Origin: a virus
Lineage: Duplodnaviria > Heunggongvirae > Uroviricota > Caudoviricetes
Strand: one strand, 5' to 3'
Virus record (IMG/VR): IMGVR_UViG_3300042402_007287
Length of the DNA: 64,000 bases
Shown here: piece by piece, positions 16,625 through 50,283 of the stretch
Layout: each line of letters starts with the position of its first letter
Numbering within the stretch: position 1 is the first letter of the stretch
Translations under genes and position numbers: made by a program
Notes under the pieces: model-generated
What the model saw: only the letters and a program-made list of their open reading frames with translations
Told to the model about the DNA's origin: nothing
The model's database searches: none

Positions 16625-16828
16625 TCAAACTATTTCAATCTGATACAATTTAGCAAACTTTTGAATAACATTTGTAAGTCCGTTGGGTAAATTGTCCGAG
16701 GTTATTTTGAAAATTGGGTTACCTTTGAGGTTGTCTACATAAACAAAATCTAATTGATAAAGTTTTTCCATACTCGGGTAATAATGGTATAAACCCTTTT
16801 TGAAATTTTCAAGAATTTGAGAGTTCAT
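16625..16828 (-). CDS. hypothetical small protein
   Basis: 67-aa ORF. Confidence 0.3.
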   Translation of the reverse strand: MNSQILENFKKGLYHYYPSMEKLYQLDFVYVDNLKGNPIFKITSDNLPNGLTNVIQKFAKLYQIEIV

Positions 16829-19056: not shown

Positions 19057-20296
19057 AAATGTAATTCATTACTTCTTCTTCTTCGAAATATTTTTTTATT
19101 GCCACGTGATTTTGGAATCTTTGTGATTCTTGTTTTTCTTCATCCCAATTCCAATCTTTGAATCCCAAGGATAAAATTCTTTCGTGGATTGCTTTATCAT
19201 AAAAGTCTCTAATAATTCTTGCTCTTCGATTTATATCTTGAGCATTATTATCAACCGTACTGTTACGATTATTCCATTGCAAATATAGGACACGTTTTAC
19301 GTGAATAAACCGTGTATGTAAAAAACTTCTTATTATAATCTCCAAATCATCCGCAACAGGAGTAAGTTTATTGTGTCCACCTATTTTGTGATATAGGTTT
19401 CTTTCCCACATTCTCACGTGGTCGGGCATGGATATATTGAACCTTATTGATAATGGATTTATATCAGGGTACCAGTGTGCCAAAATTTTTCTACCATCTA
19501 CTTCAACCCAAGTGTGACCAGCATAACCAAAATCAAAAAAATTATCATGTCTTGCATACCAACCACCTGTCCAATCATGGTCATAAGATTTCATCTCACC
19601 ATCCTCATATAATTCACAAACATCCGTATATAAAAATCCTGCATCAGGATATTTGATGATGGCATCATTACAAGTGGATAAACACTCTGTGGTCAAAGTA
19701 TCATCATGGTCCAACTCGACCAACCAATCACCATCACATAACATAGCTGCTCTATGTTTGGCCAAACCTACATTACCACCCGATAACGGGTAAATACGAT
19801 GAATTTTAACCCTGTAGTCTTTCGAAGAAATTTCTTTCAATAGGTTCCATGTTATTTCGTCAGGCGAATCGTCTACTACGACCCATTCCCAATTAGTCCA
19901 AACTTGAGACCTCAGACTCTCATAAGTTCTTTTAATTCTTTCATAAGTCTTATATGCTGGTGTGAAGACCGAAAATCGTGGTCTATGGTATGTAAGGTTT
20001 TTGTAAATAGCTTCCTTACATATCGTGTTAGCCAAATCATAATCACCCAAAGGATTTTCTATGAAAACATAAATTTGTTGTAATTGATAATGAGGTACAT
20101 TCACGTGAGTCCCAATCGAAACAATAATATCAGGTCTATACTTGGAATAATCTTCGGCCACATTATCTGTGTAAGGTAAAGAATAAACCATGATTTCTTC
20201 CCAAAGCCCTTCTTCAGAATAAATTGAAGTTTGTAATAATTCCTCACCCTGTTTGTACCAATTATAAACTATCGCACTCGGTTTTTTTGTCTTCAT
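19049..20296 (-). CDS. family-2 glycosyltransferase
   Basis: FTPAYKTYERIKRTYESLRSQVWTNWEWVVVDDSPDE...DWLVELDHDD shows a GT2 core with a DxD motif. Confidence 0.6.
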   Translation of the reverse strand: MKTKKPSAIVYNWYKQGEELLQTSIYSEEGLWEEIMVYSLPYTDNVAEDYSKYRPDIIVSIGTHVNVPHYQLQQIYVFIENPLGDYDLANTICKEAIYKNLTYHRPRFSVFTPAYKTYERIKRTYESLRSQVWTNWEWVVVDDSPDEITWNLLKEISSKDYRVKIHRIYPLSGGNVGLAKHRAAMLCDGDWLVELDHDDTLTTECLSTCNDAIIKYPDAGFLYTDVCELYEDGEMKSYDHDWTGGWYARHDNFFDFGYAGHTWVEVDGRKILAHWYPDINPLSIRFNISMPDHVRMWERNLYHKIGGHNKLTPVADDLEIIIRSFLHTRFIHVKRVLYLQWNNRNSTVDNNAQDINRRARIIRDFYDKAIHERILSLGFKDWNWDEEKQESQRFQNHVAIKKYFEEEEVMNYIYE

Positions 20297-22299: not shown

Positions 22300-22824
22300 T
22301 TAAATTATTTTTTTGAAGTTATAAGCCACTGAATATCTGTGGTTTGCAAAACTTGAACTTGGTGGTCTACCTGAATGTGGGATAGAAGAATCGAAAATTA
22401 CCAACCTACCAGGTTTGGGTATTATGCTCGCAATTATCTCTGTATCAGGTGATAAACTTTCAGTAAAAATGGTTTCCGAACCCCAATTTATGTTCCATTT
22501 GGGATTACCATATAAAAGTGCTGTGATATCTGACTCATCTGTATGGAGAGCTGTAACATCTCCTCTCTTGTATGCATTTCGGAATGCTGAAAAGAATTTG
22601 TATTTTCCTGATATTATTGGTAAAGAATGTAATCGACCCAAAATCTTCCAATATATGGTGTTCTCAGGTATCTCTTTTATATAACCAATATCAGCACCTC
22701 CCTCTAATTGAACTTCGGAAAGATAAGGGACCTTTTCTTCCAAAATCCAAGAACTCTCCCTTAGAGTTTTGAACAACTCAGTTATTTCCTCAGGGGTGAG
22801 AAACTCATCAAAAACCTCAATCAT
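22300..22824 (-). CDS. 2OG-Fe(II) oxygenase, prolyl-4-hydroxylase-like
   Basis: An HxD...H...RxS triad: ALHTDESD ... IPHSGRP ... HRYSVAY. Confidence 0.6.
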   Translation of the reverse strand: MIEVFDEFLTPEEITELFKTLRESSWILEEKVPYLSEVQLEGGADIGYIKEIPENTIYWKILGRLHSLPIISGKYKFFSAFRNAYKRGDVTALHTDESDITALLYGNPKWNINWGSETIFTESLSPDTEIIASIIPKPGRLVIFDSSIPHSGRPPSSSFANHRYSVAYNFKKII

Positions 22825-28150: not shown

Positions 28151-29440
28151 TAGGCGAAAACTCTGAGAATACAAGTCTTGACAAGAGTCTTTAGGAGGAT
28201 TATTTGGTTCCCTCTGTTTCCACTTCCTTTTGAGAAGTAACTCTCAGTCACGGTCAATTAGATTAACCAATCCTGAAGTTGTCTGCAACTCTCCCATTAC
28301 TCATCACTCTTCGACCCTGCCGAGCCAATTCATCCTTGCGGGATTAGAGAACTTTCGTGAAAATCGTGTCGGGCTTGGGACCCTTCACGGCAATGAACAT
28401 CTCATTACTATGTAGTGACCTGTCACACACAACTGACGAGCACTTTTCCTTGATTTAATTAATGTTTTGGACATTGCATAGACCAAAGTTGGTTTACGGA
28501 TTATGAAGGTAGTGGCCCGTCTGAAGCCAAGTCATCTTTTGAACGACCCGATACTAAACTACCCTCTGAAGTGTCCCCACCTCCATACTTCGAGTCAACT
28601 TCATAACAGACCTCTTGGTAGAGCATTTGCTAAGGTTCTATCAGCACCACCTGTAATAAAACTTACCTTTCGGTTTTTAAGTCAACTTTGATATTGAATG
28701 ACGCAATTGTGACAGTGGATACTACCACTTCTTACATCGATTCTACAGGTGATTCTTGTTGGTCTTCCGACCTCAACCAAACGACCCGAATCGCTTGGTC
28801 ACCACACCACGTTCCCTACAGTGTTACCCTCGGTACTAAAGGTGTTGTGATATCCTGCTTGCCTACTCGAGCTCCCTTTTGGAAACCGCGGGAACCACCA
28901 AACCAGGGGTTCCTACTTTATACTACTTTCGTAGTTTATTTAACGACCATAGGCGGCCAATATCTTGAATCAAAGAACTATCAAAGATTGAAGGAAACCG
29001 AAATATCTTTACTCCGAACATTCGGAAACGATTTCCCTCAATTGTCTTACAAAGATAAGAAGTCATTTTCAGACTGTCAAATTTTATAAGAGTTTTTTAT
29101 AAAAAATTTACAGGCTTTTTGTACCCTTTTGTACATCATGACCAACATATTCCTACATTGGTGGTTACATTTTCGTCGTTGGTTAATTACTCCTGACTTA
29201 TAGTAACTATACCCTCCCCGCTCTGATACCGCGAATCAAGACGGCGTCTTTGGGATTCATATACCGTGGGGTTCCACCACAGTCTTCACCTGTATTGTTG
29301 CGACGCCTTGGAATTGAACCAAGTTCAATTGGCTTATGAGACCAATGAGATACCTTACCTCCCGCTCGCCCTATAATAAAACTACTCAAGTCCCCGTGTC
29401 ACCATCCAAGTCATGCTCTGGTTGAACCTTGAGTAGAAAT
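28151..29440 (-). ncRNA. candidate large structured non-coding RNA, about 1.3 kb, GC-elevated and ORF-poor; the strand call rests on the terminator
   Basis: GC is roughly 45-50 percent by eye against about 33 percent around it. Only short, implausible ORFs. Many local hairpins. No recognisable rRNA, RNase P, tmRNA or tRNA signature. Confidence 0.3.
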
Positions 29441-29467: not shown

Positions 29468-29522
29468 AGTCCCACAAAGATAAGACATTTTTTTGAAACA
29501 CCAAACTTGTGGGACTTTTTTT
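29468..29522. terminator. hairpin agtcccacaa...ttgtgggact (10-bp stem, 29-nt loop) plus T7
   Basis: A and T runs on both sides. Lies between the GC island and the Nudix gene. Confidence 0.4.
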
Positions 29523-29756
29523 GAGACTTTTTCTGTCTCGTATGATTCAGGTTTTTTTACCAACCTCTCGGTTGAAAACTTGAATCTGTGGGGATGTTCA
29601 CCCTTTCGGGTAAGAACATATAAATATACCGAAAAGTGAAAAAAGTAACCTTTGGTGAAAATATTTTTTCAAAGATTTTTTTCTTTTTCTTCACGTAACT
29701 CAAACCAAATTACAATACCTGTGAAAACTAAACCAACAATCATATACCAAATCATA

Positions 29757-30167
29757 TCACATATTTTTTAAAAGATTGTATAGGTTCTCTCCAATTTTGG
29801 AAGGTGGCATTTCTTCGAGAGTATAATAACCACATTCAGTATGTTCTTCACCGTCAATCGCAATTGATAAATCAGGAATGAGTTTTTCAATTGGTTCTGT
29901 CTCAAAGACATGCATCTGACCCTTCAACTTCTTACCGTCTCTCGAATATCTTGGAATTACACCAACTTTGTTCAATGTTTCACTATCTATGTCAACAGCC
30001 ATTTCTTCAAAAAACTCTCTACGTGCTGTTTGGATGGGAGACTCGCCTTCCTCCATTGTACCTCCAGGAATTGACCAAACACCTGGATAATCTACTTTAG
30101 AACTTCTTTTACAAAATAAAATTTTCTTTTTGTGTTTTACCACTACACCCGCATAACTTTTTTTCAT
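29757..30167 (-). CDS. Nudix hydrolase
   Basis: Nudix box GGTMEEGESPIQTARREFFEEMAV (GX5EX7REUXEEXGU). Confidence 0.85.
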   Translation of the reverse strand: MKKSYAGVVVKHKKKILFCKRSSKVDYPGVWSIPGGTMEEGESPIQTARREFFEEMAVDIDSETLNKVGVIPRYSRDGKKLKGQMHVFETEPIEKLIPDLSIAIDGEEHTECGYYTLEEMPPSKIGENLYNLLKNM

Positions 30168-30181
30168 AGTATTTATTAAAT

Positions 30182-30532
30182 ATGATTGTAAAGATAAAAA
30201 ATAACGAATTTAAATCAAAGGTTTTGTTGGATAAAAAATCTCAAATGAAAGGGATGATGGGAAAAGTATTTGATGATGATTTTCAGGGATTGTTATTTCT
30301 TATGGGTGGAAAGGAACAATGTTTTTGGATGAAAAATTGTATTATTGATTTGGATATTATAATAATCAAAGATAATATTATAACAAAAATTCATCACGAT
30401 TGTCCTCCTTGTGAAGAGGATGATTGTATGTCTTATTGTGGTCCTGGAAATGTTGTGTTCGAGGTTCAGGGTGGGACCTGTTGGGATTTAGATATCAATG
30501 AAGGTGATAGGGTGGATTATGTAATAAGATAA
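30182..30532 (+). CDS. DUF192 domain protein
   Basis: KGMMGKVF...QGLLFLMGG...CFWMKNCIIDLDIIII fits the DUF192 pattern GLMfr...GMLF...fWMkNt.iPLDiiFi. Confidence 0.55.
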   Translation: MIVKIKNNEFKSKVLLDKKSQMKGMMGKVFDDDFQGLLFLMGGKEQCFWMKNCIIDLDIIIIKDNIITKIHHDCPPCEEDDCMSYCGPGNVVFEVQGGTCWDLDINEGDRVDYVIR

Positions 30533-30567
30533 TCTTTTGAAGATTTTAGTCAGAAATTCTAACCATT

Positions 30568-31980
30568 TTAGTGAATTTTGGATTTCAATGTTTTTTTGAA
30601 TTCTGATGCTAACATTTTAAGAAATTTAATGTATGGAGCATCTTCCTTTTCAGGGTCCCATCTATAGTTCCCTTGAGGCGGTCTCTTACTTCTACCTAAA
30701 TAATTTAAACCACTTATGTTTGTAATACATTTATGTCCACCTGACATGGACTGAAGTAGTTCCCAAGCATTGATTCCTAATTTGTCTAAAATATTTTTTT
30801 CTTCATCCGTAAGTTTAACAAAAGGTTTGTTCATCATTTCCTTTATTTGTGACAAAATTTCTTTACCACCTTGCATATATTGAATTTTACCACCATAAAG
30901 AGCATCAAAATCTTTAAATGTGAAACCTACACTTTCAGGGTTCACCGAAGTTTCACTAATCCATTTGATTGTTGATAAGGGTATTACCCTTGATTGTAAT
31001 TTATCTTTCCATTTTGATAAAACCTCTTGTGCAATTTCACCGAGATTCACACCTTTGAGTTCTCTATCTTTTTTGAATGGATTACACGAAACTTGTAACA
31101 ATCCCATAGGCCAAATCATAATCAAAAAATCCGCATCAGGATTGTTCTTGAAAGGGGTGTATCTGTCATAGGAACCTGCTTTCCTCATATCCCCACCACC
31201 GTACTGAGTTAAAATACTCCCATCTACTTCCAAACCATGATAAGATTTCATTCTTTGTGAATAATCTTGAGAATGGGATTGTAATTTTTCGGGTTGTTCA
31301 GCCCCTGTTTCTTTCATCCACTTTCTTATGTTCGTGAGAATCGAAAGCAGAGATGGCTCAGAATCCATTACAAGATTTTCCATAAACCCACGTCTGTTCT
31401 TGAAGGCTAAAATAAGTTTATTTATAACCAATCCCAAAAGCATTTTGTTCTTTTGTAGAGGTTTCTCTTTATCAAATCTAAAAATGTAATTTATTACATC
31501 CTCGGGAGTAATTTCATTTCTAGCGAAATCTGCAGAATCAACAGTGCTTATCAGACGTATGTCTGAAGATGGAAATAAATCTTTAGGTGAAACAATTTGA
31601 GATATTGTTTCAACGTTAGAACGAGCTTGTCTAAATGATTTGGATGTTTCTTTTTCAGCACCAACTTGTTTATCGTGGTGGTCCGTGTGAATTTTAAACA
31701 TCGGCTTCCCGTGAGCAAAATCGACTAGCACAGGCATCGTGTCACCTTCGGCATCATTTTTTTTTACAGCAAACTCTTTGTCACCATATTGAATTATATG
31801 TGCACCAACAACTTCAATCCCATTGTCCTCAAGATATTTTTTCATCGCTATAGCGGTAGTGACACCGTCTAAGTCTTGGTGAAAATAAATTTCGGCTTTG
31901 GGATATCTCTTCCTCAAAGCCGAAATGTCTCTTATACCTGTTTCTTTTAAAATTTTTTTCATCAATCCCAACCCATCCAA
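30568..31980 (-). CDS. DHH/DHHA1-family phosphoesterase (NrnA or RecJ-like nuclease / pAp-phosphatase family)
   Basis: Motif I HQDLDGVTTA, the DHH motif KIHTDHHDKQ, and a GGH/GGGD DHHA1-like motif near the C-terminus. Confidence 0.55.
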   Translation of the reverse strand: MDGLGLMKKILKETGIRDISALRKRYPKAEIYFHQDLDGVTTAIAMKKYLEDNGIEVVGAHIIQYGDKEFAVKKNDAEGDTMPVLVDFAHGKPMFKIHTDHHDKQVGAEKETSKSFRQARSNVETISQIVSPKDLFPSSDIRLISTVDSADFARNEITPEDVINYIFRFDKEKPLQKNKMLLGLVINKLILAFKNRRGFMENLVMDSEPSLLSILTNIRKWMKETGAEQPEKLQSHSQDYSQRMKSYHGLEVDGSILTQYGGGDMRKAGSYDRYTPFKNNPDADFLIMIWPMGLLQVSCNPFKKDRELKGVNLGEIAQEVLSKWKDKLQSRVIPLSTIKWISETSVNPESVGFTFKDFDALYGGKIQYMQGGKEILSQIKEMMNKPFVKLTDEEKNILDKLGINAWELLQSMSGGHKCITNISGLNYLGRSKRPPQGNYRWDPEKEDAPYIKFLKMLASEFKKTLKSKIH

Positions 31981-32327
31981 TGTAAGAATTTATCGAAAAT
32001 GTCACCTTCTTCAGCCATCAGTTTTTTTAACTTTTTTTGGTCTTCCTTCGGCATTTTCTCCCAAGTATTTATTTCCCAAACTCCATCCGCAGGATAAACT
32101 CCTATCATAGATTGGTATTTTGATATTGCCTGTGCCGTTTGAGAGGTCAAATTATTATCAGTTCTACCGTCAACGGTTAGAGGTTTTTTATTGTCTCCGG
32201 TAATTTTTTTATCAATTAAAAATCTTTGTATTGCTCTAATGAAACTTCTTGTTTCATTTTGTTCATTTATAACCCTTGTTACGATTCTTTCCAAATCTGT
32301 TTCGGTAAGTCTGACAATTTTCTTCAT
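31962..32327 (-). CDS. hypothetical protein with the N-terminal MKKIVRLTETDLERIVTRVINEQ motif
   Basis: 121-aa ORF. Confidence 0.5.
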   Translation of the reverse strand: MKKIVRLTETDLERIVTRVINEQNETRSFIRAIQRFLIDKKITGDNKKPLTVDGRTDNNLTSQTAQAISKYQSMIGVYPADGVWEINTWEKMPKEDQKKLKKLMAEEGDIFDKFLHWMGWD

Positions 32328-32701
32328 TAGTATTTAAGTGTTAAAAGGAATTTTGATTTATTTATCAATCCGAGCATCTCATCTCTGATATTCAACAAGT
32401 CAGTATCGTATTTTGGGTCCAATTCTTCAGACATAGAAACCAAAAATTCAACTATTCCATCGACAAAGTTCTGAATACTGAGACTTGATATATCTTGAAA
32501 CATCAAAGCAAACTCATCATCAAACTTAGGTCTACCATACTTTCCCATCATGGTTTCAGTAAACTCATCAATCAGGTCACCTAAACCATCGTAAATTTCT
32601 CCATAAACTCTGTGTTTAGCATCCCCAAAAGTTTGCCAATGTAAAAACTTCCATTGAAGTTGCATCTGAACGAGTTTCTTTATCAATTCTTCAGTCATCA
32701 A
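32327..32701 (-). CDS. hypothetical protein
   Basis: 124-aa ORF in an ATGA-type junction with the upstream gene. Confidence 0.45.
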   Translation of the reverse strand: MMTEELIKKLVQMQLQWKFLHWQTFGDAKHRVYGEIYDGLGDLIDEFTETMMGKYGRPKFDDEFALMFQDISSLSIQNFVDGIVEFLVSMSEELDPKYDTDLLNIRDEMLGLINKSKFLLTLKY

Positions 32702-32730
32702 AATAATTTAATTATAAATATACTGAAAAG

Positions 32731-32755
32731 AAAAAAAGGGGTATTACCCCTTTTC
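32731..32755. terminator. hairpin GGGG-tatta-CCCC flanked by an A-run and a T-run
   Basis: Overlaps the stop codon of the methyltransferase gene. Confidence 0.45.
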
Positions 32756-33598
32756 AAAATCAAGTTCAGGTTGGTTTTTTTTATCTATGAAATGTTGTAC
32801 TCGTTTTTGAGCGACTCCACAGTAGTTTTCACTAAGCTCGATACCAATCCAATTACGGTCGGAAATAACTGCAGCAACCAAACTTGTTCCACTACCAGCA
32901 AAAGGGTCAAGAACCAAATCATTTTTATAAGTTAAAATTTTTATTGCCTTTAAAGGAATATCTAATGAAAATGTTGCCTTTGTCAATTGTTTCGTGTCGG
33001 CAAAATAATCCCACTCCCCGTAAACTAAATCCATGAACTCTCTTTTCTGTTCTTCAGTATACATCATTTTAGTTCGGGTCTTTCCCTCTTCGTTGGTGAC
33101 CTCCTCAGGGATTCCTACCCACTCTGGTTGACCTTTTACTTTCTTTATGTGGTTTTTCTTGTACGCCAAAATAACACACTCCTTGGGGTTGTAAATGTAC
33201 GGTGCGGATGGTGACATCCAAGAACCCCATGCGGTGGTTTTACTCCTATGAGGAGAATTTTCTTTTAGGTCAACAATCCCGAAAAACTTGAATCCAATTA
33301 TCTGCATTATCCGCCAAAGTTCAGACGCCATGAAAATTCTTCCACCCTGACTCTGACGATTTATTTCATATGGAATGTTCAAAGCAATTCTCCCATCTTC
33401 CTTCAACACTCTGAAAGCTTCTGTCATCCAGTTTGTTGAAAACAATTTATAATCTTCAAAAGGGATGTCGTCTTCAAAAGTGTCATAATCGATTCCTACA
33501 CCATAGGGTGGAGATGTTACTATGAGGTCAATTGAATTTTCGGGAAATGTTTTCATAACCTCAATACAATCACCTTGATATATCTTATTAGTTTGCAT
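32744..33598 (-). CDS. DNA methyltransferase, N6-adenine or N4-cytosine (beta class; N-4/N-6 methylase domain)
   Basis: Motif IV IVTSPPYGVGIDYD comes before motif I DPFAGSGTSLVAA. Confidence 0.8.
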   Translation of the reverse strand: MQTNKIYQGDCIEVMKTFPENSIDLIVTSPPYGVGIDYDTFEDDIPFEDYKLFSTNWMTEAFRVLKEDGRIALNIPYEINRQSQGGRIFMASELWRIMQIIGFKFFGIVDLKENSPHRSKTTAWGSWMSPSAPYIYNPKECVILAYKKNHIKKVKGQPEWVGIPEEVTNEEGKTRTKMMYTEEQKREFMDLVYGEWDYFADTKQLTKATFSLDIPLKAIKILTYKNDLVLDPFAGSGTSLVAAVISDRNWIGIELSENYCGVAQKRVQHFIDKKNQPELDFEKG

Positions 33599-33999
33599 TA
33601 TAATTTTCCTTCTTTTTTTAATTCTTCTCTAATTTTTGTTGCAGATATCTCCCCAACCTCTTGAGGTGGTATGTGTTCGATTATATCATAACCAACACCT
33701 CTACCAAAATTGACAGATTCGATATCAGGTATAATCATAACTTTTACTTTCTCGTCGGTCAAATATTTCCACAACTCTTTTTTGATATTGGATTCAACTT
33801 CTTGAGCACTAAAAGGATTTTTATCATCAGGTTGAATATCTCTTATACAAATTAAAACATTTTTTCCTTCGTTCAGACATTCATCCACAATCCATCGATG
33901 TCCCCCGTGAAATGGTTGGAACCGTCCCACAAACATAGAATATTGCTTACCTCCAGTATTTTTTAATTTCGGGTCACCCTCAACGTGAATTTTTCGCAT
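33598..33999 (-). CDS. cytidylyltransferase-like nucleotidyltransferase; closest to archaeal/bacterial NadM-type NMN adenylyltransferase
   Basis: GRFQPFHGGH (the HxGH motif) followed by a short alpha/beta body. Resembles M. jannaschii NMNAT GRFQPFHKGH. Confidence 0.55.
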   Translation of the reverse strand: MRKIHVEGDPKLKNTGGKQYSMFVGRFQPFHGGHRWIVDECLNEGKNVLICIRDIQPDDKNPFSAQEVESNIKKELWKYLTDEKVKVMIIPDIESVNFGRGVGYDIIEHIPPQEVGEISATKIREELKKEGKL

Positions 34000-34420
34000 A
34001 ATCTAAAACTTTTTTTGCTGACTCAACTATACTTTCATTGGTTGTATCAATCTCAAGATAGTTTTCTGTTGGTTCATTGTATTCTTTAACAAAGAATTGT
34101 TCTCTACCTCTTTTTTCTGATGTATGAACGTAGACTTCTCTCAAATCATCCCCCATCTTTTCCTTGAACCTATCCCTTTGGTCTTTATATGGGGAAACTA
34201 AAGATACTAAAACATCAACTCCCTGGTTGTGAAGATATTGAGATATTTGTTGAGCAAGTTCAATATTCTTTCTTCTACCTGTTTTAGAGTAATCTTTATT
34301 GTCAAATAAATCTCTTAGGTCATCCCCATCAACATGGAAAAACTCTGTGTGAATAGACATAATCTGTTCACAGATAGTTGTTTTACCCGAACCAGGTTGA
34401 CCTGTTAGCCAAATAATCAT
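33980..34420 (-). CDS. cysC: adenylyl-sulfate (APS) kinase-like P-loop kinase
   Basis: IWLTGQPGSGKTTI, VDGDDLR, RRKNIELAQQISQYLHNQGVDVLVSLVSPYKDQRDRFKE and YNEP align with CysC [55 protein letters not shown] and YEAP. Confidence 0.65.
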   Translation of the reverse strand: MIIWLTGQPGSGKTTICEQIMSIHTEFFHVDGDDLRDLFDNKDYSKTGRRKNIELAQQISQYLHNQGVDVLVSLVSPYKDQRDRFKEKMGDDLREVYVHTSEKRGREQFFVKEYNEPTENYLEIDTTNESIVESAKKVLDYAKNSR

Positions 34421-34641
34421 TTTTCCAAATTTTTAATTCTTCTATCTAAATAAAATTGAGCCTTTTTAAGGTCTTCTAGTTCTTTAGAGGGGTCTTTGAT
34501 ACCGGCACGAGCAATATATTTTACAACATTGAACAAATATGCGTCCTTATCTAAACCCCACGCTTCACAAACTTTTATCACCTCATAGGGATTATCCGCA
34601 CCACCGTAGTGAATCGGTCCATTGACCATTTCAGTATTCAT
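34417..34641 (-). CDS. DUF3310-family phage protein
   Basis: HYGGADNPYEVIKV...NVVKYIARAGIKD...EDLKKAQFYL fits the DUF3310 pattern. Confidence 0.5.
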   Translation of the reverse strand: MNTEMVNGPIHYGGADNPYEVIKVCEAWGLDKDAYLFNVVKYIARAGIKDPSKELEDLKKAQFYLDRRIKNLEK

Positions 34642-34647
34642 ATATTT

Positions 34648-35349
34648 TTATTTTTTCCAAGAATTTTTATCGTAACCTAAGATTTCAAAATAATTTTGAG
34701 TGTTATAAAAAACTAAATCAGCCATTGATTGATTATAATAATCTTTCCAATCAACTTCAAACTTTGATTTATTTATTTTTTTATTACAGAATTCTTCCAA
34801 AAGTCCTGATTTATAATAATCACTTTTAACAACGAAAGGAATTTTGGAATAGTCCTCGAACAAATTTTCAACTCTAACAAAATAATCAGGGATTCTATCG
34901 TGAAAAGTTACACAATCGAAATTTGTATGATGAAATATTTGTGTTTCTAAAAAATCATCAAAATTTTCGATTGTTGCTTCATCCTTTTTTGCCATTATAT
35001 AGAAAGAAACATATCTTGAGTAGGGATTTCTAGCCGTAGCTAACATCTTATAATCATGGTGCCCTTCAAATAATTGACAAGTGTGTTGCTGAGTGATTCC
35101 TTTAGATAAAAAACTTCTTTTACCGCCATCGAACATATAAAAATTGAAACCAAAATATTTCATATTTTGTTTCAAATGGGACGTGCCGGTTTTAGCCCAC
35201 AACCAAAGAAAAGTTTTGTGTTCCTCTGAAATATTCAGCCCATAATTATTTTCTATCTCCCCACTTTTTTTGCATGTACTGCACGTATCTGTCTTGTTTG
35301 TTTCCATTGTAGAGAAAATAGGCAACGTAGTAATCAAAATACCACTCAA
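34648..35349 (-). CDS. sulfotransferase-family protein
   Basis: The 5-prime PSB-like motif WAKTGTS and a strong 3-prime PB motif ARNPYSRYVSFY (RNPxDxxVSxY). Confidence 0.6.
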   Translation of the reverse strand: MSGILITTLPIFSTMETNKTDTCSTCKKSGEIENNYGLNISEEHKTFLWLWAKTGTSHLKQNMKYFGFNFYMFDGGKRSFLSKGITQQHTCQLFEGHHDYKMLATARNPYSRYVSFYIMAKKDEATIENFDDFLETQIFHHTNFDCVTFHDRIPDYFVRVENLFEDYSKIPFVVKSDYYKSGLLEEFCNKKINKSKFEVDWKDYYNQSMADLVFYNTQNYFEILGYDKNSWKK

Positions 35350-35363
35350 GTTTTTTGAAAAAT

Positions 35364-35570
35364 TTATTCTTCTTCATCTTCTTCTAATTCTTCAACATTA
35401 GTAACGGTATAATCTTCTCCTCCTGATGTTTCACGTTGCCAATGGTCATCGTTATCATCAACTTCACCATTCTCAACCATCTCAATTGCTTCATCTTCAG
35501 TTTCCGCTTCGACAGTATAAGTAACATATTCATCGATAGTTCTCACACCTGTTATAGTAAATCTTTTCAT
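35364..35570 (-). CDS. small very acidic protein
   Basis: 68-aa ORF. Confidence 0.35.
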   Translation of the reverse strand: MKRFTITGVRTIDEYVTYTVEAETEDEAIEMVENGEVDDNDDHWQRETSGGEDYTVTNVEELEEDEEE

Positions 35571-35782
35571 AGAAAATATTTTTTTATCGCTTCAAGTTTA
35601 TCATCAGCGTCAACCAACATTTGTAGAGCTTCTTCTGCATTTTTGTAGAAATCTCCTGTTGAATGGTCGCCTATTCCTGCCGCGTGGTTAGATAATAGTT
35701 CCAAAGTTAGAAGAGCTTTGGCTTTCTGTGCTTCAGCTTCAAGCTCAAGCATTTTGATTAAATGTTTTTTTACTTCTGCCAT
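35567..35782 (-). CDS. small helical protein
   Basis: 71-aa ORF. Confidence 0.35.
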   Translation of the reverse strand: MAEVKKHLIKMLELEAEAQKAKALLTLELLSNHAAGIGDHSTGDFYKNAEEALQMLVDADDKLEAIKKYFL

Positions 35783-36027
35783 TATTTTTTGTTTTTATGT
35801 TTTTCGGAACGTTGTCCTTTTTTATACGGTTTCTTTTCTACTTGTTCAGTAACTTGTTCAGTTTCCTGTTCGGTAGGTTTGGATTTTCTTGTTTCTTTTT
35901 TCCACTCAGATTTAGAAACGTAAGCCCAATAGTTACCTACCATGTTGTTTGCAACTTTGTCTTCGACTCTCCTAATTGTTCCGAGAGCAACATCTTTGGT
36001 TTCCTTGATTGATTTAATACACTTCAT
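35782..36027 (-). CDS. small basic protein
   Basis: 81-aa ORF. Confidence 0.35.
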   Translation of the reverse strand: MKCIKSIKETKDVALGTIRRVEDKVANNMVGNYWAYVSKSEWKKETRKSKPTEQETEQVTEQVEKKPYKKGQRSEKHKNKK

Positions 36028-36229
36028 TGGTTTTTTCCTCCATGTTTTGATTTATAATTGATAAAATTTCTTTGTCAGACTTACCTTCTTTGTATAGGTC
36101 GTAAATTTTCGAACTTAAAGAATCTTCGAAAATCAATGCATCGCTTTTACCATAATAACCTTTAAGATTATTAGATTCGAGTGCGAAAATACTATTTTTT
36201 GAATCCACGTATCTTTTATTGAAACCCAT
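36014..36229 (-). CDS. small protein
   Basis: 71-aa ORF. Confidence 0.3.
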   Translation of the reverse strand: MGFNKRYVDSKNSIFALESNNLKGYYGKSDALIFEDSLSSKIYDLYKEGKSDKEILSIINQNMEEKTNEVY

Positions 36230-36241
36230 GACACAAATATA

Positions 36242-37117
36242 TTACAATTGTATTGAAGTGTCAAAGTTTTTTAGAATTTCCATGTTGACAATTTGATAAA
36301 CATAAGTCATAAGTTTTCTCTTCATCATTGGAATGAAAGTTTGTTCCATCGGGAAGTTTTGGGAAGTTTTTACTTCGAATATAGGTAATAACTCACAACC
36401 AGATATTTCTTTCCAAGTTGAGGTTTCTAAAATAAGTTTACCTATTACTATATCTGTTTTGGGTCCTTCGTAAAGTAATTTTAAATATAACTTAGTTTGT
36501 TGTTCACCTTTATCTAACTTTTTGATTTCATACTCCCATATAAAAAGTTTTTCAATTTCTTTGAAATAAAAATAAACAAATCCTCTACCTGTTGATATGT
36601 TTTCCTTGTTCTTTCTAATTGATAAATGAATGTTGTCGAAGGCTAAATTCCAAATAGATTTTCCAATATTAAAAGTGTCGAAAAGTTTAGAACCAGAGAA
36701 TTTTATTGTTTTATCAAGTTCAGATTCTTCTTCAGGAGAAAGTTCTCTTGGTTTTTTTGGTAATAATTCTTTTAGAAGAATTTCATCATCACAAGATTCA
36801 AATTTTTTTGTAGTGAAAAGAATTAAATTTTCTTTGGCTAAGGATTGAAGATTTGCTAAGTGTAATGATAACTCAACAAAATCTGGATATATCTCAAGCT
36901 TGTCAAATCTTTTCTCACATTTTTGAATATAATCCAAGACAGTATATTTGTTATATTCAAAATCCAAAGGTTCTTTGAACATCCATTCAGGGTCTAACTT
37001 GAATTTTATGTTTTTCTTTCTCGGCATAATTAAAAATACTAAACCAAAAAATTTAATCAATTCTACATACCCAAAAGTATTGTCCCAAAACTTCTCTTTC
37101 GTCCATGTTACCATCAT
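36242..37117 (-). CDS. hypothetical protein; starting at the internal ATG (MPRKK, 37027) would remove the overlap with the upstream gene
   Basis: 291-aa ORF. Confidence 0.45.
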   Translation of the reverse strand: MMVTWTKEKFWDNTFGYVELIKFFGLVFLIMPRKKNIKFKLDPEWMFKEPLDFEYNKYTVLDYIQKCEKRFDKLEIYPDFVELSLHLANLQSLAKENLILFTTKKFESCDDEILLKELLPKKPRELSPEEESELDKTIKFSGSKLFDTFNIGKSIWNLAFDNIHLSIRKNKENISTGRGFVYFYFKEIEKLFIWEYEIKKLDKGEQQTKLYLKLLYEGPKTDIVIGKLILETSTWKEISGCELLPIFEVKTSQNFPMEQTFIPMMKRKLMTYVYQIVNMEILKNFDTSIQL

Positions 37118-38102
37118 AAGAGGCTAACATCCCATATCCATCCTCGTCGATTACACCATCTATAAAACTTTCTCTGTCAATATAATAATCGATTTCCATC
37201 CCATAATCATTCATATATTCGATGGGATTTCTACTTATATCAGTCATTTTTGTCTCAACAGCCCTATCAATCAAATGTTGAGGGATATCCCCTTCAGGAT
37301 TTGATTCAATTTCACTTATTTCTTGTTCCATTTCATCAACTTCTTCTTGTAACTCATCGATTTTATCTTGTACCAATTCATCAACATCTTCATCTCCTGT
37401 AAGTCTTTCTTCTAACAAACTAATGAGTCCTTCAACTTTAGATATTCTTTCTTTGTAAATCTCTATTTTTTCCTTCTGTTGAGTAGACAATTCTCTATCA
37501 TCATCATCAAAATACACATCTGGATTATTCGTGATATCGTCTTCAAAAATACTTTCAAACTCACTCAAAACTTTTTCTTCATCGATGTGATTTTCCATAA
37601 ATCCTTTTCTAAATCCCTCGTAACCTATATCATCAATAAGCTGGCTTACATATTCCTCCGCAGATTCTTGAACCTCCGTTTCTGTACCTACTGCATATGT
37701 TTTACTCGTTACCTTGGGAATTTCAAATTGAGTCATATCATAATACTGTCCGTTTGGAATTATGTCATAAACATCAATTTTATTATCGAATTCATCTATT
37801 TCGTCTTCCAAATCAGAAATTTCATCCAATAATTCAGCTTTTTCATCTTCGTCATCTGTTGTATTGTAAGTTTGGTTCAACTCCTCAATTTTTTCAGAAA
37901 TTCTTTTTTTATTTTCCAAATCTTCGGGTGTGAGAACCTCTAACTCTGACTCATACTCTAAATAATACAACAAAGCCCAAGCCTTTCTACCCTCAAGTGG
38001 ACAATTGATATCAAGTTCCCACTCTTTGTTCTCTCTTCTCCTATCACCCTTCAACTCCTCTGAGTAATCAACCTTTTCTGATAATATTTGGGAAAATTTC
38101 AT
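37053..38102 (-). CDS. hypothetical highly acidic protein
   Basis: 349 aa rich in D/E, probably coiled coil. Confidence 0.5.
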   Translation of the reverse strand: MKFSQILSEKVDYSEELKGDRRRENKEWELDINCPLEGRKAWALLYYLEYESELEVLTPEDLENKKRISEKIEELNQTYNTTDDEDEKAELLDEISDLEDEIDEFDNKIDVYDIIPNGQYYDMTQFEIPKVTSKTYAVGTETEVQESAEEYVSQLIDDIGYEGFRKGFMENHIDEEKVLSEFESIFEDDITNNPDVYFDDDDRELSTQQKEKIEIYKERISKVEGLISLLEERLTGDEDVDELVQDKIDELQEEVDEMEQEISEIESNPEGDIPQHLIDRAVETKMTDISRNPIEYMNDYGMEIDYYIDRESFIDGVIDEDGYGMLASYDGNMDEREVLGQYFWVCRID

Positions 38103-38189
38103 CTAATTTTTATTTAATAAATATCTTTTCATTCTTATATTTCGATTCGACACTATTTATAACAATAAACTTATTTCAAATCAAAAATT

Positions 38190-38360
38190 ATGGGATGCGG
38201 TTGTAAAAACAAAGGTAATCAAACTCCTCAACCTCAAGTGAATAACCAACAACTTCAGGAAGCTCAAAAAACTCCACAAGAACAGGTTAAAGATGCCGTG
38301 AAAAAAACAATTGAAAAATATTATACGGCTCAAAAATCTAATGGTTGGGTCAGAAAATAA
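38190..38360 (+). CDS. small protein, 57 aa (MGCGCKNKGNQTPQPQ...)
   Basis: Manual translation. Followed by the terminator at 38381..38408. First + strand gene after the divergent region. Confidence 0.35.
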   Translation: MGCGCKNKGNQTPQPQVNNQQLQEAQKTPQEQVKDAVKKTIEKYYTAQKSNGWVRK

Positions 38361-40186: not shown

Positions 40187-41034
40187 ATAAAATAAGAAAT
40201 ATAATCACCAATCTAATATTGGAGGCACAGAGATATAAATTTTCTGATGATGTGAGAGATAGAATGAAATCCGTCACAGAAAAATTATGGTCTGATAGAA
40301 ATAAACCTTATAAAGGAAAAGAACTAGTTGATGTCATTCCTTTTAAATTAGCCGATGGAGTAGAGGGTTTAGCTAGAGTCGTGGTAAACCCAAGACTACC
40401 CTACATGGGTCAGATGGGTACAAAACCTCAAAAGTCAGTCGACCCGGCAGATATTGTAATCGAAGTAAATCCAAAACACTACGAGTCAAAAAAAACACTT
40501 TATCTTACACTATATCATGAAATGATACATGCCAGTGACCCAACACAATCTCATTTGTTTAGTCCCAAATATATGGTGACTTACAATGAGAAATCAGATA
40601 AAGATTATTGGGGTCATCCAATAGAATTTTTTGCAATTTCAAATGAATTTTTGGAGGGTTTGGTTCTCGAATTTGAAAGAAGAGTTAAAAGAAACAGAAA
40701 AATTGAAAACCTACAATTTTTAGAAAAATCATTAAAAAATATAATCAATTATTTTGCCAAGGGTGACCCACTATCTAAACTCTCGAAGGATATTTTATTT
40801 AGAATAAATGATGAACATTTGGGAAATGACCTTATCAGAGTTTTCAAAAATTTAACCACCGATAATCCTCAACTTGCAGATTTTATGTCTGAGAGAGGAG
40901 GAGAAGAACCTTACTACATTTATTATGTTGAATTGATTAAAAAGTATAACCCAGAAATTTGGAAAAAATTTCTGTCGATGTTATACCAAACTGGTTTCGA
41001 AATAAGAGATTTAATTCAAAAGACCGAAATCTAA
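40183..41034 (+). CDS. HExxH motif protein ([13 protein letters not shown]); start set to the ATG at 40183 ([16 protein letters not shown])
   Basis: The track start at 40162 overlaps the upstream gene. ATG 40183 forms an ATGA junction. Confidence 0.45.
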
Positions 41035-44000
41035 ATAAGTCCTCTTTCCTTGGCTATTGTCTCTAACTCATCAAGTTTTATTTCTTTAGATTCCAAAATC
41101 AAGGATTGTTCTTTAATGGCTTCTAAACAAACAGCTATTACTTCAGCATATTTTACCATGAAATATGCGTTCTCGGTGTTTTTCTTGAAAACCAATTCAG
41201 GTAATATATGACCTATTTCTTGGGCAATGAATCCAATATCATGTTTACCTGATTGGGATGTTTCATCATTTAATTTATTCCAATAGAATGAAACACCTCT
41301 CAATTTCAGGACTTTTTCTAGTGGGGATTGTATTTCTTTTACGTCCTTTTTTAATCTTAGGTCAGAACCAGTGGTACCTTGTGCACCTTGAGCACCTTGT
41401 AAACCATTTGGACCGGTTGCACCTTGTGCACCTTGTGGACCTTGACCACCTTGTGGTCCTTGGGCACCTTGACCCCCCTGAGGTCCTTGAGCTCCTGTGG
41501 CACCACCACCGCCTTGAGCACCTTGGCCTCCTTGCGGACCTTGAGCACCTTGAGCACCTTGGGCACCACCACCGCCTTGAGAACCTTGTCCTCCGGCGGT
41601 ACCCTGAGCCCCTGTGGGACCTTGAGAACCTTGTCCACCTATTGGACCTTTGGGACCTTGAGCTCCTTGAGCACCTTGAGCACCTCCAGGTCCTGTTGGA
41701 CCCTGAGCCCCTTGAGCTCCTCCTCCACCTTGGGAACCTTGACCTCCCGTAGGACCTTGAGCCCCTTGAGCACCACCAGGTCCTTGAGCTCCTTGAGCAC
41801 CTTGACCTCCCGTAGGACCTTGAGCCCCTTGAGCACCACCAGGTCCTTGAGCTCCTTGAGCACCTTGACCTCCCGTAGGACCCGTAGGTCCTTTGGGACC
41901 AATAGGACCAGGAACACCAGTTGCACCGTTTGCACCGATATGACCTTGTGGTCCCTGTGCACCTTGTCCTCCCTGAGCACCTTGTGCACCTTGACCCCCT
42001 TTAGGTCCTGTGATACCTGTAGGTCCAGTAGGTCCTTGCGCACCTTGTGCACCTTGACCTCCAGTTGTTCCTTGAAAACCTTGTGAACCGACGGGCCCTT
42101 GAGCACCTTGGGCACCTTGTCCACCACCTCCACCTTGAGCACCTTGTGAACCTGTGGCTCCTTGTGCTCCCTGAGCACCTTGTCCGCCACCAGGACCAGT
42201 TGCACCTTGAGCTCCTTGTGAACCTTGAGCTCCTTGTGCACCCTGTCCTCCTTGTGAACCTTGACTACCAACAGCTCCTTGAGCACCTTGAGCACCTTGA
42301 GCTCCGGCGACGCCCTGAGAACCTTGAGCTCCTGTGGCACCTTGTGCACCTTGGGAACCTTGAGCACCTTGCCCACCTTGTGAACCTTGTGCACCTACGG
42401 GACCTGTCGTTCCTTGTGCTCCTTGTGCACCCTGTCCTCCACCTCCACCTTGAGCACCTTGGGCTCCAACTATACCTTGAGCTCCTTGTGCACCTTGTCC
42501 TCCTCCGGCACCTTGAGAACCTTGGGCTCCTGTGGGTCCTTGAGAACCCTGAGCACCTTGACCTCCTGTAGCTCCTTGAGCTCCTTGGGCACCTGTTGTA
42601 CCTTGAGCCCCTTGGGCACCTTGTCCTCCTTGGGAACCTTGAGCACCTTGGGCTCCTGTTGAACCTTGGGCTCCTTGAGCTCCTGTTCCACCTTGTGAAC
42701 CTTGTGAACCTTGGGCTCCTGTTGAACCTTGAGCACCTTGGGCTCCTGTTCCACCTTGGGAACCTTGGGCTCCTGTTGAACCTTGAGCACCTTGGGCTCC
42801 TTGAGCACCTTGTGGACCTTTAGGACCTTGGGCACCTTGAGCACCTTGTCCTCCCTGAGCTCCTTGAGCTCCTTGACCACCTTGGGACCCTTGCGCACCT
42901 GTTAAACCTTGTGAACCTTGTGCTCCTTGAGCACCCTGTCCACCTTGGGAACCTTGAGCTCCTGTAGGACCGAGAGCCCCTTGTGCTCCTTGAGCACCTT
43001 GCCCACCTTGAGCTCCTTGAGCTCCTGTGAGACCGACAGCCCCTTGAGCTCCTTGAGCCCCTTGTCCACCCTGAGCTCCTTGAGCACCTGTAGGACCAAC
43101 TGCGCCTTGAGCACCTTGAGCACCTTGTCCCCCTTGGGAACCTTGGGCTCCTGTTGTACCTTGGGAACCTTGAGCACCTTGGGCACCTTGTCCACCTTGT
43201 GCCCCTTGAGCACCTGTGAGACCTTTAGCCCCTTGTGAACCTTGAGCGCCCTGTCCACCCTGTGCTCCTTGCGAACCTTGAGCACCTGTTGAACCTTGGG
43301 CTCCTTGGGCTCCTTGACCACCTTGAGAACCTTGAGCTCCTGTGGGTCCCAAAGTTCCTTGTGAACCCTGAGCACCTTGTCCTCCTTGAGCTCCTTGTGA
43401 ACCCTGAGCACCTGTAAAACCTTGTGAGCCTTGTGAACCTTGACCACCTTGTGAACCTTGTGCACCTGTAGGTCCTTGTGACCCTTGAGCACCTTGAGCA
43501 CCTTGTCCCCCTTGAGCACCCTGAGAACCTTGGGCACCTGTTGAACCTTGGGTACCCTGTGCTCCTTGACCCCCTTGAGCTCCTTGAGCACCAGTAGAAC
43601 CTTGTGAACCTTGAGCACCCGTTGGACCTTGAGGTAATTTAGCTCCGACCCATCCTGTTGAATTTATTAAATCTCCCGAGGCATTTGCAAGTTTGTTAGT
43701 AAGTGTTATTGACCCCCCACTGACTCTGAGGTTTGGATAGGAAGTACTTATTCTTGCTAAAGTGGAAGTTAAAGTTCCAAATTTCAACTCACCATTCTCC
43801 ATATACCAGTTAGTGGCAGTTCCTCCAGAATCTATAAGTTGAAAATTGGCTCCATCAGGATAAACAATTATATTTTCATCACCTGAAAATTCAGTACATT
43901 TTCTAACCTCCGTGACAGTTCCTGTCCTATTTATCTTCCAAACCGTTGTATCAACAGAATCCTTTAGATATAAATTAGGTAATAATGGAGAGAAAGTAAT

Positions 44001-44138
44001 AACATTAGTATAACCTGCATCTGTATAGACTACACAACCTCCACTTAGTGATGGACACGGTGTATAAATAGTCTGTGATGCCACAGAATTACACGCATTT
44101 AGATAACTCGTCCCTGAATATACTACGTATGATGCCAT
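41031..44138 (-). CDS. collagen-like (Gly-X-Y) fibre protein, 1035 aa, with a C-terminal intramolecular-chaperone auto-processing (peptidase S74) domain
   Basis: About 730 residues of GAQGSQG-type triplets. The C-terminus [12 protein letters not shown]...FYWN... matches the S74 S|DxRLKxNI cleavage motif of phage tail fibres. Confidence 0.85.
41753..41878. repeat. perfect 63-nt tandem duplication inside collagen-like gene 1
   Basis: The unit encodes a repeated 21-aa [21 protein letters not shown] block. Confidence 0.6.
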
Positions 44139-50100: not shown

Positions 50101-50283
50101 ATTTGCAGGGTCTACTGTCATCAAATTTGTATCACCAACAGTATTACCGCTGAATTTAATTTTACCTGAAGGTGTAACCGTCAGAATAACCTGACCCGTG
50201 GTACCCTCATAACTTATAAATGGAGTACGGTTAGCAGTCCTCTCAGTGAAATTACTCGGAACAATTAAAATATTTTTTCCCAT
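47122..50283 (-). CDS. collagen-like fibre protein, 1053 aa, with a Cys-rich domain of about 100 aa before the C-terminal S74 chaperone domain
   Basis: ...GVTCQLNS...[45 protein letters not shown]... Confidence 0.85.

Follow-up and report, generated by a model that had tools for sequence, protein, structure and literature searches.

A modular gene block in a freshwater jumbo phage encodes a candidate pathway for making, using and clearing PAPS

We analyzed a 64,000 nt stretch of DNA from a tailed virus (Caudoviricetes; IMG/VR record IMGVR_UViG_3300042402_007287), in the following called the window, and focused on a minus-strand gene block that may make, use and recycle the sulfate donor 3'-phosphoadenosine 5'-phosphosulfate (PAPS). 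The block encodes a kinase of the adenosine 5'-phosphosulfate (APS) kinase family, a protein with a predicted sulfotransferase fold and a DHH-superfamily phosphoesterase, which may act on the by-product 3',5'-ADP (pAp or PAP). A small nucleotidyltransferase (NT) is encoded directly beside the kinase (Table 1). A first-pass annotation had joined the first three genes into one sulfation circuit. All three open reading frames (ORFs) were confirmed on the minus strand, encoding 470 (DHH), 146 (kinase) and 233 (sulfotransferase candidate) aa, and the quoted motifs were recovered: P-loop, DGD, R-x-NI and SPY in the kinase, a motif resembling the 3'-phosphate-binding (3'-PB) motif in the sulfotransferase candidate, and D100-H-H102 and G414-G-H416 in the DHH protein. 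The interleaved genes were also named correctly: DUF3310 (48 bits), an N6_N4 DNA methylase (PF01555, 112 bits) and an NMNAT-like protein (PF01467, 30 bits). The window is viral and carries three collagen-like tail-fibre ORFs; the source is a freshwater jumbo phage. Close relatives of the block were seen on IMG/VR contigs of 317-321 kb, and a nucleotide search with the block against 50,697 deposited phage records gave zero matches.

Table 1. Features of the gene block and of the glycan module in the window.
Feature	Position	Strand	Remarks
Sulfotransferase-fold protein	34648..35349	-	233 aa from TTG start; accessory cassette gene
PSB-like loop K53-T-G-T-S57	35179..35193	-	resembles the 5'-phosphosulfate-binding (PSB) loop
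3'-PB-like motif R107-NPYSRYV-S115	35005..35031	-	resembles the 3'-phosphate-binding motif; A106-RNPYSRYVSFY-117
Short-lid APS-kinase-family kinase	33980..34420	-	146 aa; PF01583, 64.7 bits
Minimal HxGH nucleotidyltransferase (NT)	33598..33999	-	133 aa; PF01467, 30 bits
DHH-superfamily phosphoesterase	30568..31980	-	470 aa; putative DHHA1-type C-terminal lobe; core gene
DUF3310 protein	34417..34641	-	74 aa; PF11753, 48 bits; core gene
N6/N4 DNA methyltransferase	32744..33598	-	PF01555, 111.7 bits; core gene of block
Terminator-like hairpin	32733..32755	-	10-bp stem and T-run, 3' end of methyltransferase gene
DUF5856 (Dps-like) gene and small PG_binding-like protein gene	31962..32701	-	PF19174, 50.8 bits; PF01471, 21.3 bits (under cut-off)
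NUDIX hydrolase	29757..30167	-	PF00293, 65.7 bits; block-end neighbour kept in related loci
DUF192	30182..30532	+	PF02643, 61.7 bits; block-end neighbour kept in related loci
UDP-galactopyranose mutase and two GT2 genes	16809..20296	-	PF03275, 263.7 bits; PF00535, 24.8 and 60.8 bits

The assignment of the kinase is well supported. The protein matched the Pfam family APS_kinase (PF01583) with 64.7 bits at a cut-off of 21.1 (profile positions 4-112 of 152), while the runner-up family reached 31 bits, and 19 out of 19 matches among Protein Data Bank (PDB) sequences were APS kinases. The motifs read GQPGSGKTT (P-loop, residues 7-15), D31-G-D33, R49-R-K-N52-I and S76-P-Y. In seven diverse phage kinases, G7-T15, D31, G32, D33, R36, Y44, R49, N52, S76 and P77 were invariant. 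Y44 and N52 were conserved to at least 90% in a wider set of 59 sequences, in which S76 was not invariant, and across the phage relatives the P-loop, D31-G-D33, R36 and R49 did not vary. The conserved residues aligned with their counterparts in the structures 2yvu, 8a8h and 5cb6, and D31, D33, R36, Y44, R49, N52 and S76-P77 are presumably the Mg-, 3'-OH-, adenine- and phosphosulfate-binding positions of APS kinases. The first-pass annotation had held that placement in a different P-loop kinase family would speak against its view; APS_kinase was the best family by far. Identity as a dNMP, polynucleotide or nicotinamide-riboside kinase was ruled out by scores at least 30 bits lower for these families and by the cysDN context of the cellular relatives.

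The alignment of the kinase to the APS kinases of the PDB ended at about residue 100, and the mobile lid, which in APS kinases is a KGLYKKAR...FTGID-type segment folding over APS and ATP, is about 12-15 residues short (segment EKRGREQFFVKEYNEP). The decisive evidence on the kinase came from cellular genomes. In a scan of 185,579 species genomes, 80 loci were found to encode a kinase of this short-lid form with 36-52% identity; they belong to Flavobacteriales, Verrucomicrobiota, Marinimicrobia and other groups, and contigs of up to 1 Mb carry some of them. In 33-34 of these loci the kinase was followed by DUF2061, CysD (PF01507) and CysN (GTP_EFTU), which is a sulfate-activation array. Since these cysDN-linked bacterial homologs share the short form, the short lid is the mark of a subfamily and not a loss of function. 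Six Marinimicrobia loci carried a kinase-NT pair within polysaccharide clusters (Poly_export/SLBB, epimerase, UDP-sugar dehydrogenase) together with Sulfotransfer_5 (E 7.8e-48), and in locus L127 a Sulfotransfer_3 gene (E 4.3e-21) directly preceded kinase and NT, in the same order as in the phage. As the cellular relatives adjoin cysDN or sulfotransferases, we conclude that the short-lid subfamily makes PAPS; the phage kinase very probably does the same. The assignment as APS kinase by family score, motifs and context of the cellular relatives was therefore upheld.

One group of cellular kinases had an additional domain. In L130 (6001..6801) and about 16 other Flavobacteriales/Crocinitomicaceae loci with cysD-cysN arrays (e.g., L131, L138, L146), the short APS kinase continued at its C-terminus into a HAD-type hydrolase domain of about 120 aa, which starts with AVDFDGV and matches Pfam HAD_2/Hydrolase. 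In such a fusion protein, a 3'-phosphatase may accompany the synthesis of PAPS.

For the sulfotransferase candidate the evidence came from the predicted structure. The AlphaFold model (predicted local distance difference test score, pLDDT, 86; predicted template modelling score, pTM, 0.81) showed a sulfotransferase fold that was set apart from generic P-loop kinases, and the lack of this fold, which had been named as an outcome against the assignment, was not observed. In the model, the PSB-like loop, comparable to the PKxGTT-like loop with Lys of sulfotransferases, connects strand 46-49 with helix 56-63. K53 was conserved to at least 90%, and the loop followed the pattern (K/R)(T/C)(G/A)(S/T) across members with 21-42% identity. 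The 3'-PB-like motif lies where strand 101-106 passes into helix 109-124; R107, N108 and P109 were invariant and S115 was conserved to at least 90%. The spacing of 8 between Arg and Ser equals that of the SULT motif. His89, which was invariant in our alignment (A1), and the conserved residues His97 and Glu161 are candidate catalytic bases. Most homologs start at the equivalent of Met15, and an ATG start at 35307 is possible.

Sequence comparison gave a different picture. The first-pass annotation had expected Pfam matches to Sulfotransfer_1 or Sulfotransfer_3, and the 233-aa protein matched neither of these nor any other Pfam, NCBIfam or PHROG family. Weak Pfam matches were seen in 12 of 44 family members, eight to Sulfotransfer_2 (best E 3.8e-4) and four to Sulfotransfer_1 (best E 6.8e-5). 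Neither phmmer nor the family profile retrieved a sulfotransferase among PDB sequences. The comparison by hhalign with one Sulfotransfer_3 and one Sulfotransfer_5 protein gave probabilities <1%; only the PSB-like loop was aligned, to the PRSGST loop of the Sulfotransfer_3 protein, and this was not significant. The family comprised 52 clusters, all metagenomic, with no tblastn match of the protein in the deposited phage records and no member in a pattern scan of the species genomes. The fold and the PAPS-type motifs thus agreed with the first-pass assignment, while a match of the protein to a family model was lacking. From fold and motifs, the 233-aa protein is probably a sulfotransferase of a new and apparently virus-restricted sequence family; if this is true, a sulfotransferase family missed by current annotation would gain a name.

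The DHH protein matched PF01368 with 19.7 bits, under the cut-off of 28.1, but 34 out of 34 diverse members of its family matched (best E 8e-7). DHHA1 was detected by Pfam neither in the window protein nor in any of the 34 members. H34, D36, D38, D87, D100, H101, H102 and D148, which make up the DHH motifs I-IV (DxD, D, DHH, D) for the binding of two Mn2+ ions, were invariant in alignments of 34 and 54 sequences. In the C-terminal motif S413-G-G-H416 the residues G414, G415 and H416 were invariant and S413 was conserved to at least 90%. The structural model aligned over 266 residues with the two-lobed structure 8a8k of MtPAPP, the PAP phosphatase of Methanothermococcus thermolithotrophicus. 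This PAP-specific enzyme was the best structural match by 2.8 Z units, and the closest structural relatives were PAP phosphatases and not RecJ, GdpP or PPX. MtPAPP is highly specific for PAP and binds its metals by H6, D8, D10, D57, H76, H77 and D127 (PMC10322725); the phage ligand set H34, D36, D38, D87, H101, H102 and D148 follows this pattern. DHH enzymes of the NrnA type also hydrolyze pAp (PMC9779919). The metal ligands and the structural match to a PAP phosphatase agreed with the assignment made in the first-pass annotation; the Pfam models it had expected were reached under the cut-off (PF01368) or not detected (DHHA1). Based on the fold and the identical metal-ligand set, we consider the DHH protein a candidate PAP phosphatase.

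The first-pass annotation had mentioned the NT merely as an interleaved NMNAT-like gene. NT carries both nucleotidyltransferase signatures, GRxQPxHxGH and ISATKIR, with an invariant H31-x-G-H34; the invariant residues are G25, R26, Q28, H31, G33, H34, G99, R100, V102-G-Y104 and I118-x-A-T-x-I-R124. Among PDB sequences the NT family profile matched archaeal NMNAT (residues 22-95, E 1.4e-9), while PPAT and NadR gave weak matches. NT has 133 aa, compared to 168-181 aa in archaeal NMNATs, and about 40 residues are missing from its C-terminal half. The best NCBIfam matches were NMNAT families, all under the cut-off (e.g., 41.5 vs 127). NT did not qualify as a full-length NadM-type enzyme, as the NMN-binding C-terminal half was not matched. 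The same profile search, taken up to E 10, did not retrieve an ATP sulfurylase, and a mini ATP sulfurylase recognizable by sequence was therefore rejected; the idea rests on gene context.

Several features of this context connect NT with the kinase. The NT gene overlaps with the kinase gene in the window and follows it in Marinimicrobia (about 60% identity). Single-polypeptide kinase-NT proteins occur in Xylella (phage Salvo gp32 and relatives) and Stenotrophomonas phages and in some Verrucomicrobiota and Bacteroidota, the bacterial loci including L161, L180 and L193; for Stenotrophomonas phage DLP_6 the fusion is probable, given how long the gene is and where in it the match lies. NT and CysDN excluded each other beside the kinase (both 0, NT only 12, CysDN only 34, neither 22; Fisher p 1.5e-4, a value that ignores phylogeny and is inflated by shared ancestry). 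Three unrelated sulfotransferase families, Sulfotransfer_5, Sulfotransfer_3 and the phage family, adjoin kinase-NT pairs, and the divergence of kinase and NT co-varied (rho 0.52). NT is therefore a constant partner of the kinase and not a gene that is just interleaved, as shown by overlap, fusion and the exclusivity with CysDN. NMNAT and ATP sulfurylase belong to one HUP/HIGH-motif homology group and share the same nucleotide-binding elements (PMC6957218). We tentatively propose, at clearly less than even odds, that NT is a minimal, unrecognised sulfate adenylyltransferase; paired with the short-lid APS kinase, it would make up a PAPS synthase smaller than any known. The kinase-NT module would then take the place of CysDN or Sat, both in phages and in the polysaccharide-sulfation clusters of bacteria, and the jumbo phage, with its sulfotransferase family and the DHH-type PAP phosphatase, would be self-sufficient from sulfate to the sulfated product.

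Some loci with kinase and NT showed further peculiarities. In L161 (6001..8039; Verrucomicrobiota, 1.09-Mb contig) the 281-aa kinase-NT fusion overlaps with the start of a GT4 glycosyltransferase gene, a further link to glycan synthesis. In Xylella phage Salvo (L114, NC_042345; 2381..3076 and 6578..7324), a 56-kb siphophage, gp24 is annotated as cysteine dioxygenase and lies about 3.5 kb upstream of the fusion gp32, so that two sulfur-related annotations are found in one early region. In some related loci (e.g., L065, 833..2259; L086, 1835..3426; L025) an insert of about 600-770 bp parts the kinase and NT genes, which overlap elsewhere.

The chemistry suggested by these assignments is familiar, and the minimal or unannotated forms of the enzymes, carried by a virus, are new. 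Like bacterial CysC, the phage kinase belongs to the PF01583 family and has the P-loop, DGD, R...N and SPY, and cellular members of its short subfamily occur in CysD/CysN arrays. It differs in its length of 146 aa, compared to about 175-200 aa of APS kinases in the PDB, in the absence of CysD/CysN and in the absence of the HAD domain of the Flavobacteriales fusions. PAPS is made beside a carbohydrate sulfotransferase by the same logic in the NodPQ/NodH system. Animal PAPSS1/2 consist of an N-terminal APS kinase and a C-terminal ATP sulfurylase. The kinase-NT fusions (Salvo gp32, L161, L180) share this domain order, and the PAPSS1/2 kinase domains were among the sequence matches; unlike in PAPSS1/2, the 133-aa NT matches NMNAT and not ATP sulfurylase, and kinase and NT are encoded by separate, overlapping genes in the window. 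The phage sulfotransferase candidate differs from cytosolic and carbohydrate sulfotransferases (Sulfotransfer_1, _2, _3, _5) by the lack of significant sequence similarity, by a small core of about 195 aa and by its occurrence only in viral and metagenomic sequence.

In M. thermolithotrophicus the PAP phosphatase gene lies beside the genes for ATP sulfurylase and APS kinase (MtPAPP, PDB 8a8k; APS kinase, PDB 8a8h; PMC10322725). The archaeal pathway delivers to a PAPS reductase, does not include a sulfotransferase and uses a canonical ATP sulfurylase, in place of which the phage encodes only the NMNAT-like NT. Part of the lid is missing in the kinase of the phage, and its DHH protein exceeds MtPAPP by about 150 aa (470 vs 317 aa), with no sequence similarity to it in a profile search at E up to 10. 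In Campylobacter jejuni, Cj1415-Cj1418 make CDP-phosphoramidate 3'-phosphate (PMC11800397). As proposed for the kinase-NT pair, a nucleotidyltransferase and an APS-kinase homolog (Cj1415/Cj1416) build a 3'-phosphorylated, PAPS-like donor for the decoration of polysaccharides; the donor there is phosphoramidate on CDP, and the phage locus has no glutamine kinase or hydrolase partners. Cj1416 is not known to be of the HxGH/NMNAT type.

Each of the three enzyme assignments of the first-pass annotation stood up to testing, and for two of them independent evidence added strength. Taken together, we assign a probability of about 0.55 to a pathway in which a conserved early-type block supplies PAPS, the sulfotransferase uses it and the DHH enzyme clears pAp. 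The 146-aa kinase would phosphorylate the 3'-OH of APS to yield PAPS, a step well supported by family, residues and cellular context. APS may come from the host or, about equally likely, from NT acting as the minimal sulfate adenylyltransferase. No ATP sulfurylase, PAPS reductase or further sulfotransferase was found in about 50 scanned ORFs of the window and in the fetched phage flanks. The 233-aa protein, with Lys53, Arg107/Ser115 and His89 as possible catalytic base, would move the sulfuryl group from PAPS to an acceptor and release pAp; its fold and motifs were found in the model, from which PAPS as donor and the existence of an acceptor are presumed. Finally, the DHH enzyme, whose gene lies some 2 kb further downstream and probably belongs to the following transcription unit, would convert pAp to AMP by taking off the 3'-phosphate and relieve product inhibition, by analogy with the archaeal DHH-type PAP phosphatase and in line with fold and metal ligands. 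In relatives that lack the sulfotransferase, PAPS would have to serve another consumer, e.g., another transferase or the host PAPS reductase.

Several observations weigh against this pathway, at the level of the single enzymes as well as of their linkage. Besides its incomplete alignment and short lid, the kinase missed the NCBIfam equivalog cut-offs (TIGR00455, 69.9 vs 138.7), and homologs of APS kinase with other substrates exist, as Cj1415 acts in the synthesis of CDP-phosphoramidate 3'-phosphate (PMC11800397). The Z margin of the PAP-phosphatase match is modest, DHH enzymes are promiscuous, and those of jumbo phages were proposed to destroy cyclic-nucleotide signals (PMC7824862). The DHH family comprised >4,000 homolog clusters, compared to 52 for the sulfotransferase, and also occurs in huge phages without a kinase match. 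The terminator-like hairpin lies between the DHH gene and the kinase unit. The kinase-NT fusions of Xylella and Stenotrophomonas phages are found without sulfotransferase or DHH genes, and two pattern-based scans, which can miss divergent genes, did not find the sulfotransferase in the 317-321-kb relatives. The linkage was further analyzed in 113 related loci, 41 of which were distinct and had the position of the sulfotransferase gene fully covered. This position, upstream of DUF3310, is a variable site: it held the sulfotransferase in 18 of the 41 loci, while in three the gene was located elsewhere (a distant copy about 9 kb off, beside Band_7) and in 20 it was absent. The distances of sulfotransferase and kinase were also uncorrelated (rho 0.16, permutation p about 0.1).

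The other genes of the related loci behaved differently. A core of DUF3310, kinase, NT, methylase, DUF5856, DHH, DUF192 and NUDIX genes was kept at 65-89% identity, with kinase, NT and DHH present in every one of the 41 loci, and the mean pairwise divergence was 0.61 for the sulfotransferase vs 0.28 for the kinase. The order of sulfotransferase, DUF3310, kinase, NT and, further downstream, DHH was retained even where the sulfotransferases were only 35-53% identical. The sulfotransferase gene also occurred in phages without the block, with one copy near a GT17 glycosyltransferase gene, and each component was found without the others in other phages. Since the core genes are constant and the sulfotransferase is optional and uncorrelated with the kinase, the set is modular, with a core for PAPS supply and pAp clearance and an exchangeable sulfotransferase as the consumer. 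One dedicated three-gene circuit, as originally envisaged, is not supported, in view of the absence of the sulfotransferase from 20 loci, its independence from the kinase and the separate occurrence of the components.

The search for hidden sulfotransferases revealed a second insertion site beside the Band_7 gene in a few relatives. The divergent sulfotransferase-fold copy in L096 (18695..19381, minus strand), present also in L099 and L098, is 27-29% identical to the window protein, has PRTAS or PKTGS as PSB-like loop and lies beside Band_7, about 9 kb from the kinase. Because these divergent copies adjoin Band_7, the lineage has at least two cassette insertion sites. The methylase/DUF5856 junction of relatives often holds inserts of about 1-1.3 kb.

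In a rival reading, the genes adjoin each other but have no pathway in common. Kinase and NT would then perform a two-step nucleotide or cofactor pathway that has nothing to do with sulfate, e.g., an NAD-type (NMNAT-like NT with the NUDIX nearby) or CoA-type adenylylation followed by 3'-phosphorylation, the DHH protein would be a nano-RNase or an anti-defence phosphodiesterase against linear or cyclic oligonucleotide signals, and the sulfotransferase would act independently on host PAPS. The closeness of NT to archaeal NMNAT without a match to ATP sulfurylase, the conserved NUDIX gene at the end of the block, the location of the kinase-NT fusion among MazG, ligase and helicase loader genes in phages without sulfotransferase and DHH, the presence of the sulfotransferase independent of the kinase and in phages without the block, and the predicted anti-signal role of jumbo-phage DHH enzymes (PMC7824862) are in agreement with such a view. 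We nevertheless consider it unlikely: the cellular kinase subfamily is tied to cysDN in 33-34 loci, the kinase-NT pair is found beside three unrelated sulfotransferase families, the presumed phosphosulfate-binding residues of the kinase are conserved, the best structural match of the DHH protein is PAP-specific, and the scanned window ORFs yielded neither Nampt nor an NAD-salvage partner. An auxiliary set for host sulfur assimilation, in which additional PAPS, made by the kinase with or without NT, would pass through the host PAPS reductase to sulfite and cysteine for virions, the DHH enzyme would clear the pAp of the reductase and the sulfotransferase would be a side branch in some lineages, is less probable still: it accords with a core of kinase, NT and DHH with an optional sulfotransferase, with the role of APS kinase and DHH-type PAP phosphatase in assimilatory reduction without a sulfotransferase in M. 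thermolithotrophicus (PMC10322725) and with the assimilation-type cysDN arrays of the flavobacterial homologs, but no PAPS reductase was found among the scanned window ORFs, and the kinase-NT pairs of Marinimicrobia, L127 and L161 adjoin sulfotransferases or glycosyltransferases and not reductases.

Sulfotransferase genes of phages have been catalogued as auxiliary genes, and their function was stated to be unclear (PMC10580990, PMC8290583); we found no description of a phage pathway that makes, uses and recycles PAPS in the literature. If the pathway of PAPS supply, use and clearance operates, lake jumbo phages would sulfate a glycan or protein, of their own fibres or of the host surface, during infection, and this would influence adsorption, the exclusion of superinfecting phages or the resistance to degradation. 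Reports of the DHH-type PAP phosphatase have so far come from archaea (PMC10322725), and viruses would be added to its carriers. Of most consequence, the kinase-NT pairing would hint at a third class of enzymes for sulfate activation, very small in size and found also in Marinimicrobia, Verrucomicrobiota and Bacteroidota; enzymatic sulfation would profit from so compact a source of PAPS.

The acceptors suggested in the first-pass annotation, galactofuranose glycans, a Thr/Pro-rich protein and collagen-like fibres, are speculative; the genes for the glycans and the fibres were confirmed in the window. The galactofuranose-type glycan genes comprise a UDP-galactopyranose mutase and two GT2 genes; this module, about 14 kb from the block, is a possible source of an acceptor, with proximity as the link. 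The same link, proximity, applies to the collagen-like fibres. The three consecutive fibre ORFs (41031..50283, minus strand) encode about 1,000 aa each and match tail-fibre PHROGs.

The genes of the block are tightly spaced, with overlaps of 1-20 nt; the kinase gene overlaps with DUF3310 by 4 nt and with NT by 20 nt, and the sulfotransferase-fold gene is found 230 nt upstream of the kinase. The DUF3310 gene was always located directly upstream of the kinase gene (78-89% identity across the related loci), and the PHROG matches of its product are labelled 'nucleotide kinase'. The hairpin (32755..32733) between the methylase and DUF5856 genes is the only minus-strand hairpin in 29500..38300, where it was seen in two overlapping registers; on both strands of this region 11 terminator-like sites were observed vs 4.2 expected. 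Due to this hairpin after the methylase gene it is doubtful that the whole block forms a single transcription unit, while the single transcriptional direction described earlier was confirmed. A first unit probably runs from the sulfotransferase gene through DUF3310, kinase and NT to the methylase gene, and a second one probably comprises the DUF5856, PG_binding-like and DHH genes. The N6/N4 methyltransferase is probably a bystander, and so, probably, are the DUF5856 and PG_binding-like genes upstream of DHH.

Just downstream of the block, between a Thr/Pro-rich ORF and the NUDIX gene, the window contains a complete GOLLD RNA (28160..28566, minus strand; Rfam RF02032, 314.7 bits vs a cut-off of 150, model positions 1-416) and a tRNA-like element (29299..29369, minus strand; RF00005, 33.1 bits), which ARAGORN did not report. 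The odd ORFs at 28230..29389 and the apparent L096 homolog of 16839..17258 are probably translations of the conserved RNA region. Other cargo on the minus strand includes a Y-family DNA polymerase (IMS, 12456..13661), a full DnaJ (56583..57500), a Dam-type methylase (55377..56216), a 2-oxoglutarate (2OG)-Fe(II) oxygenase (22300..22824) and a C39-like peptidase (9667..10368). The GC content is 48-58% at about 42-50 kb, compared to about 33% in the remaining window.

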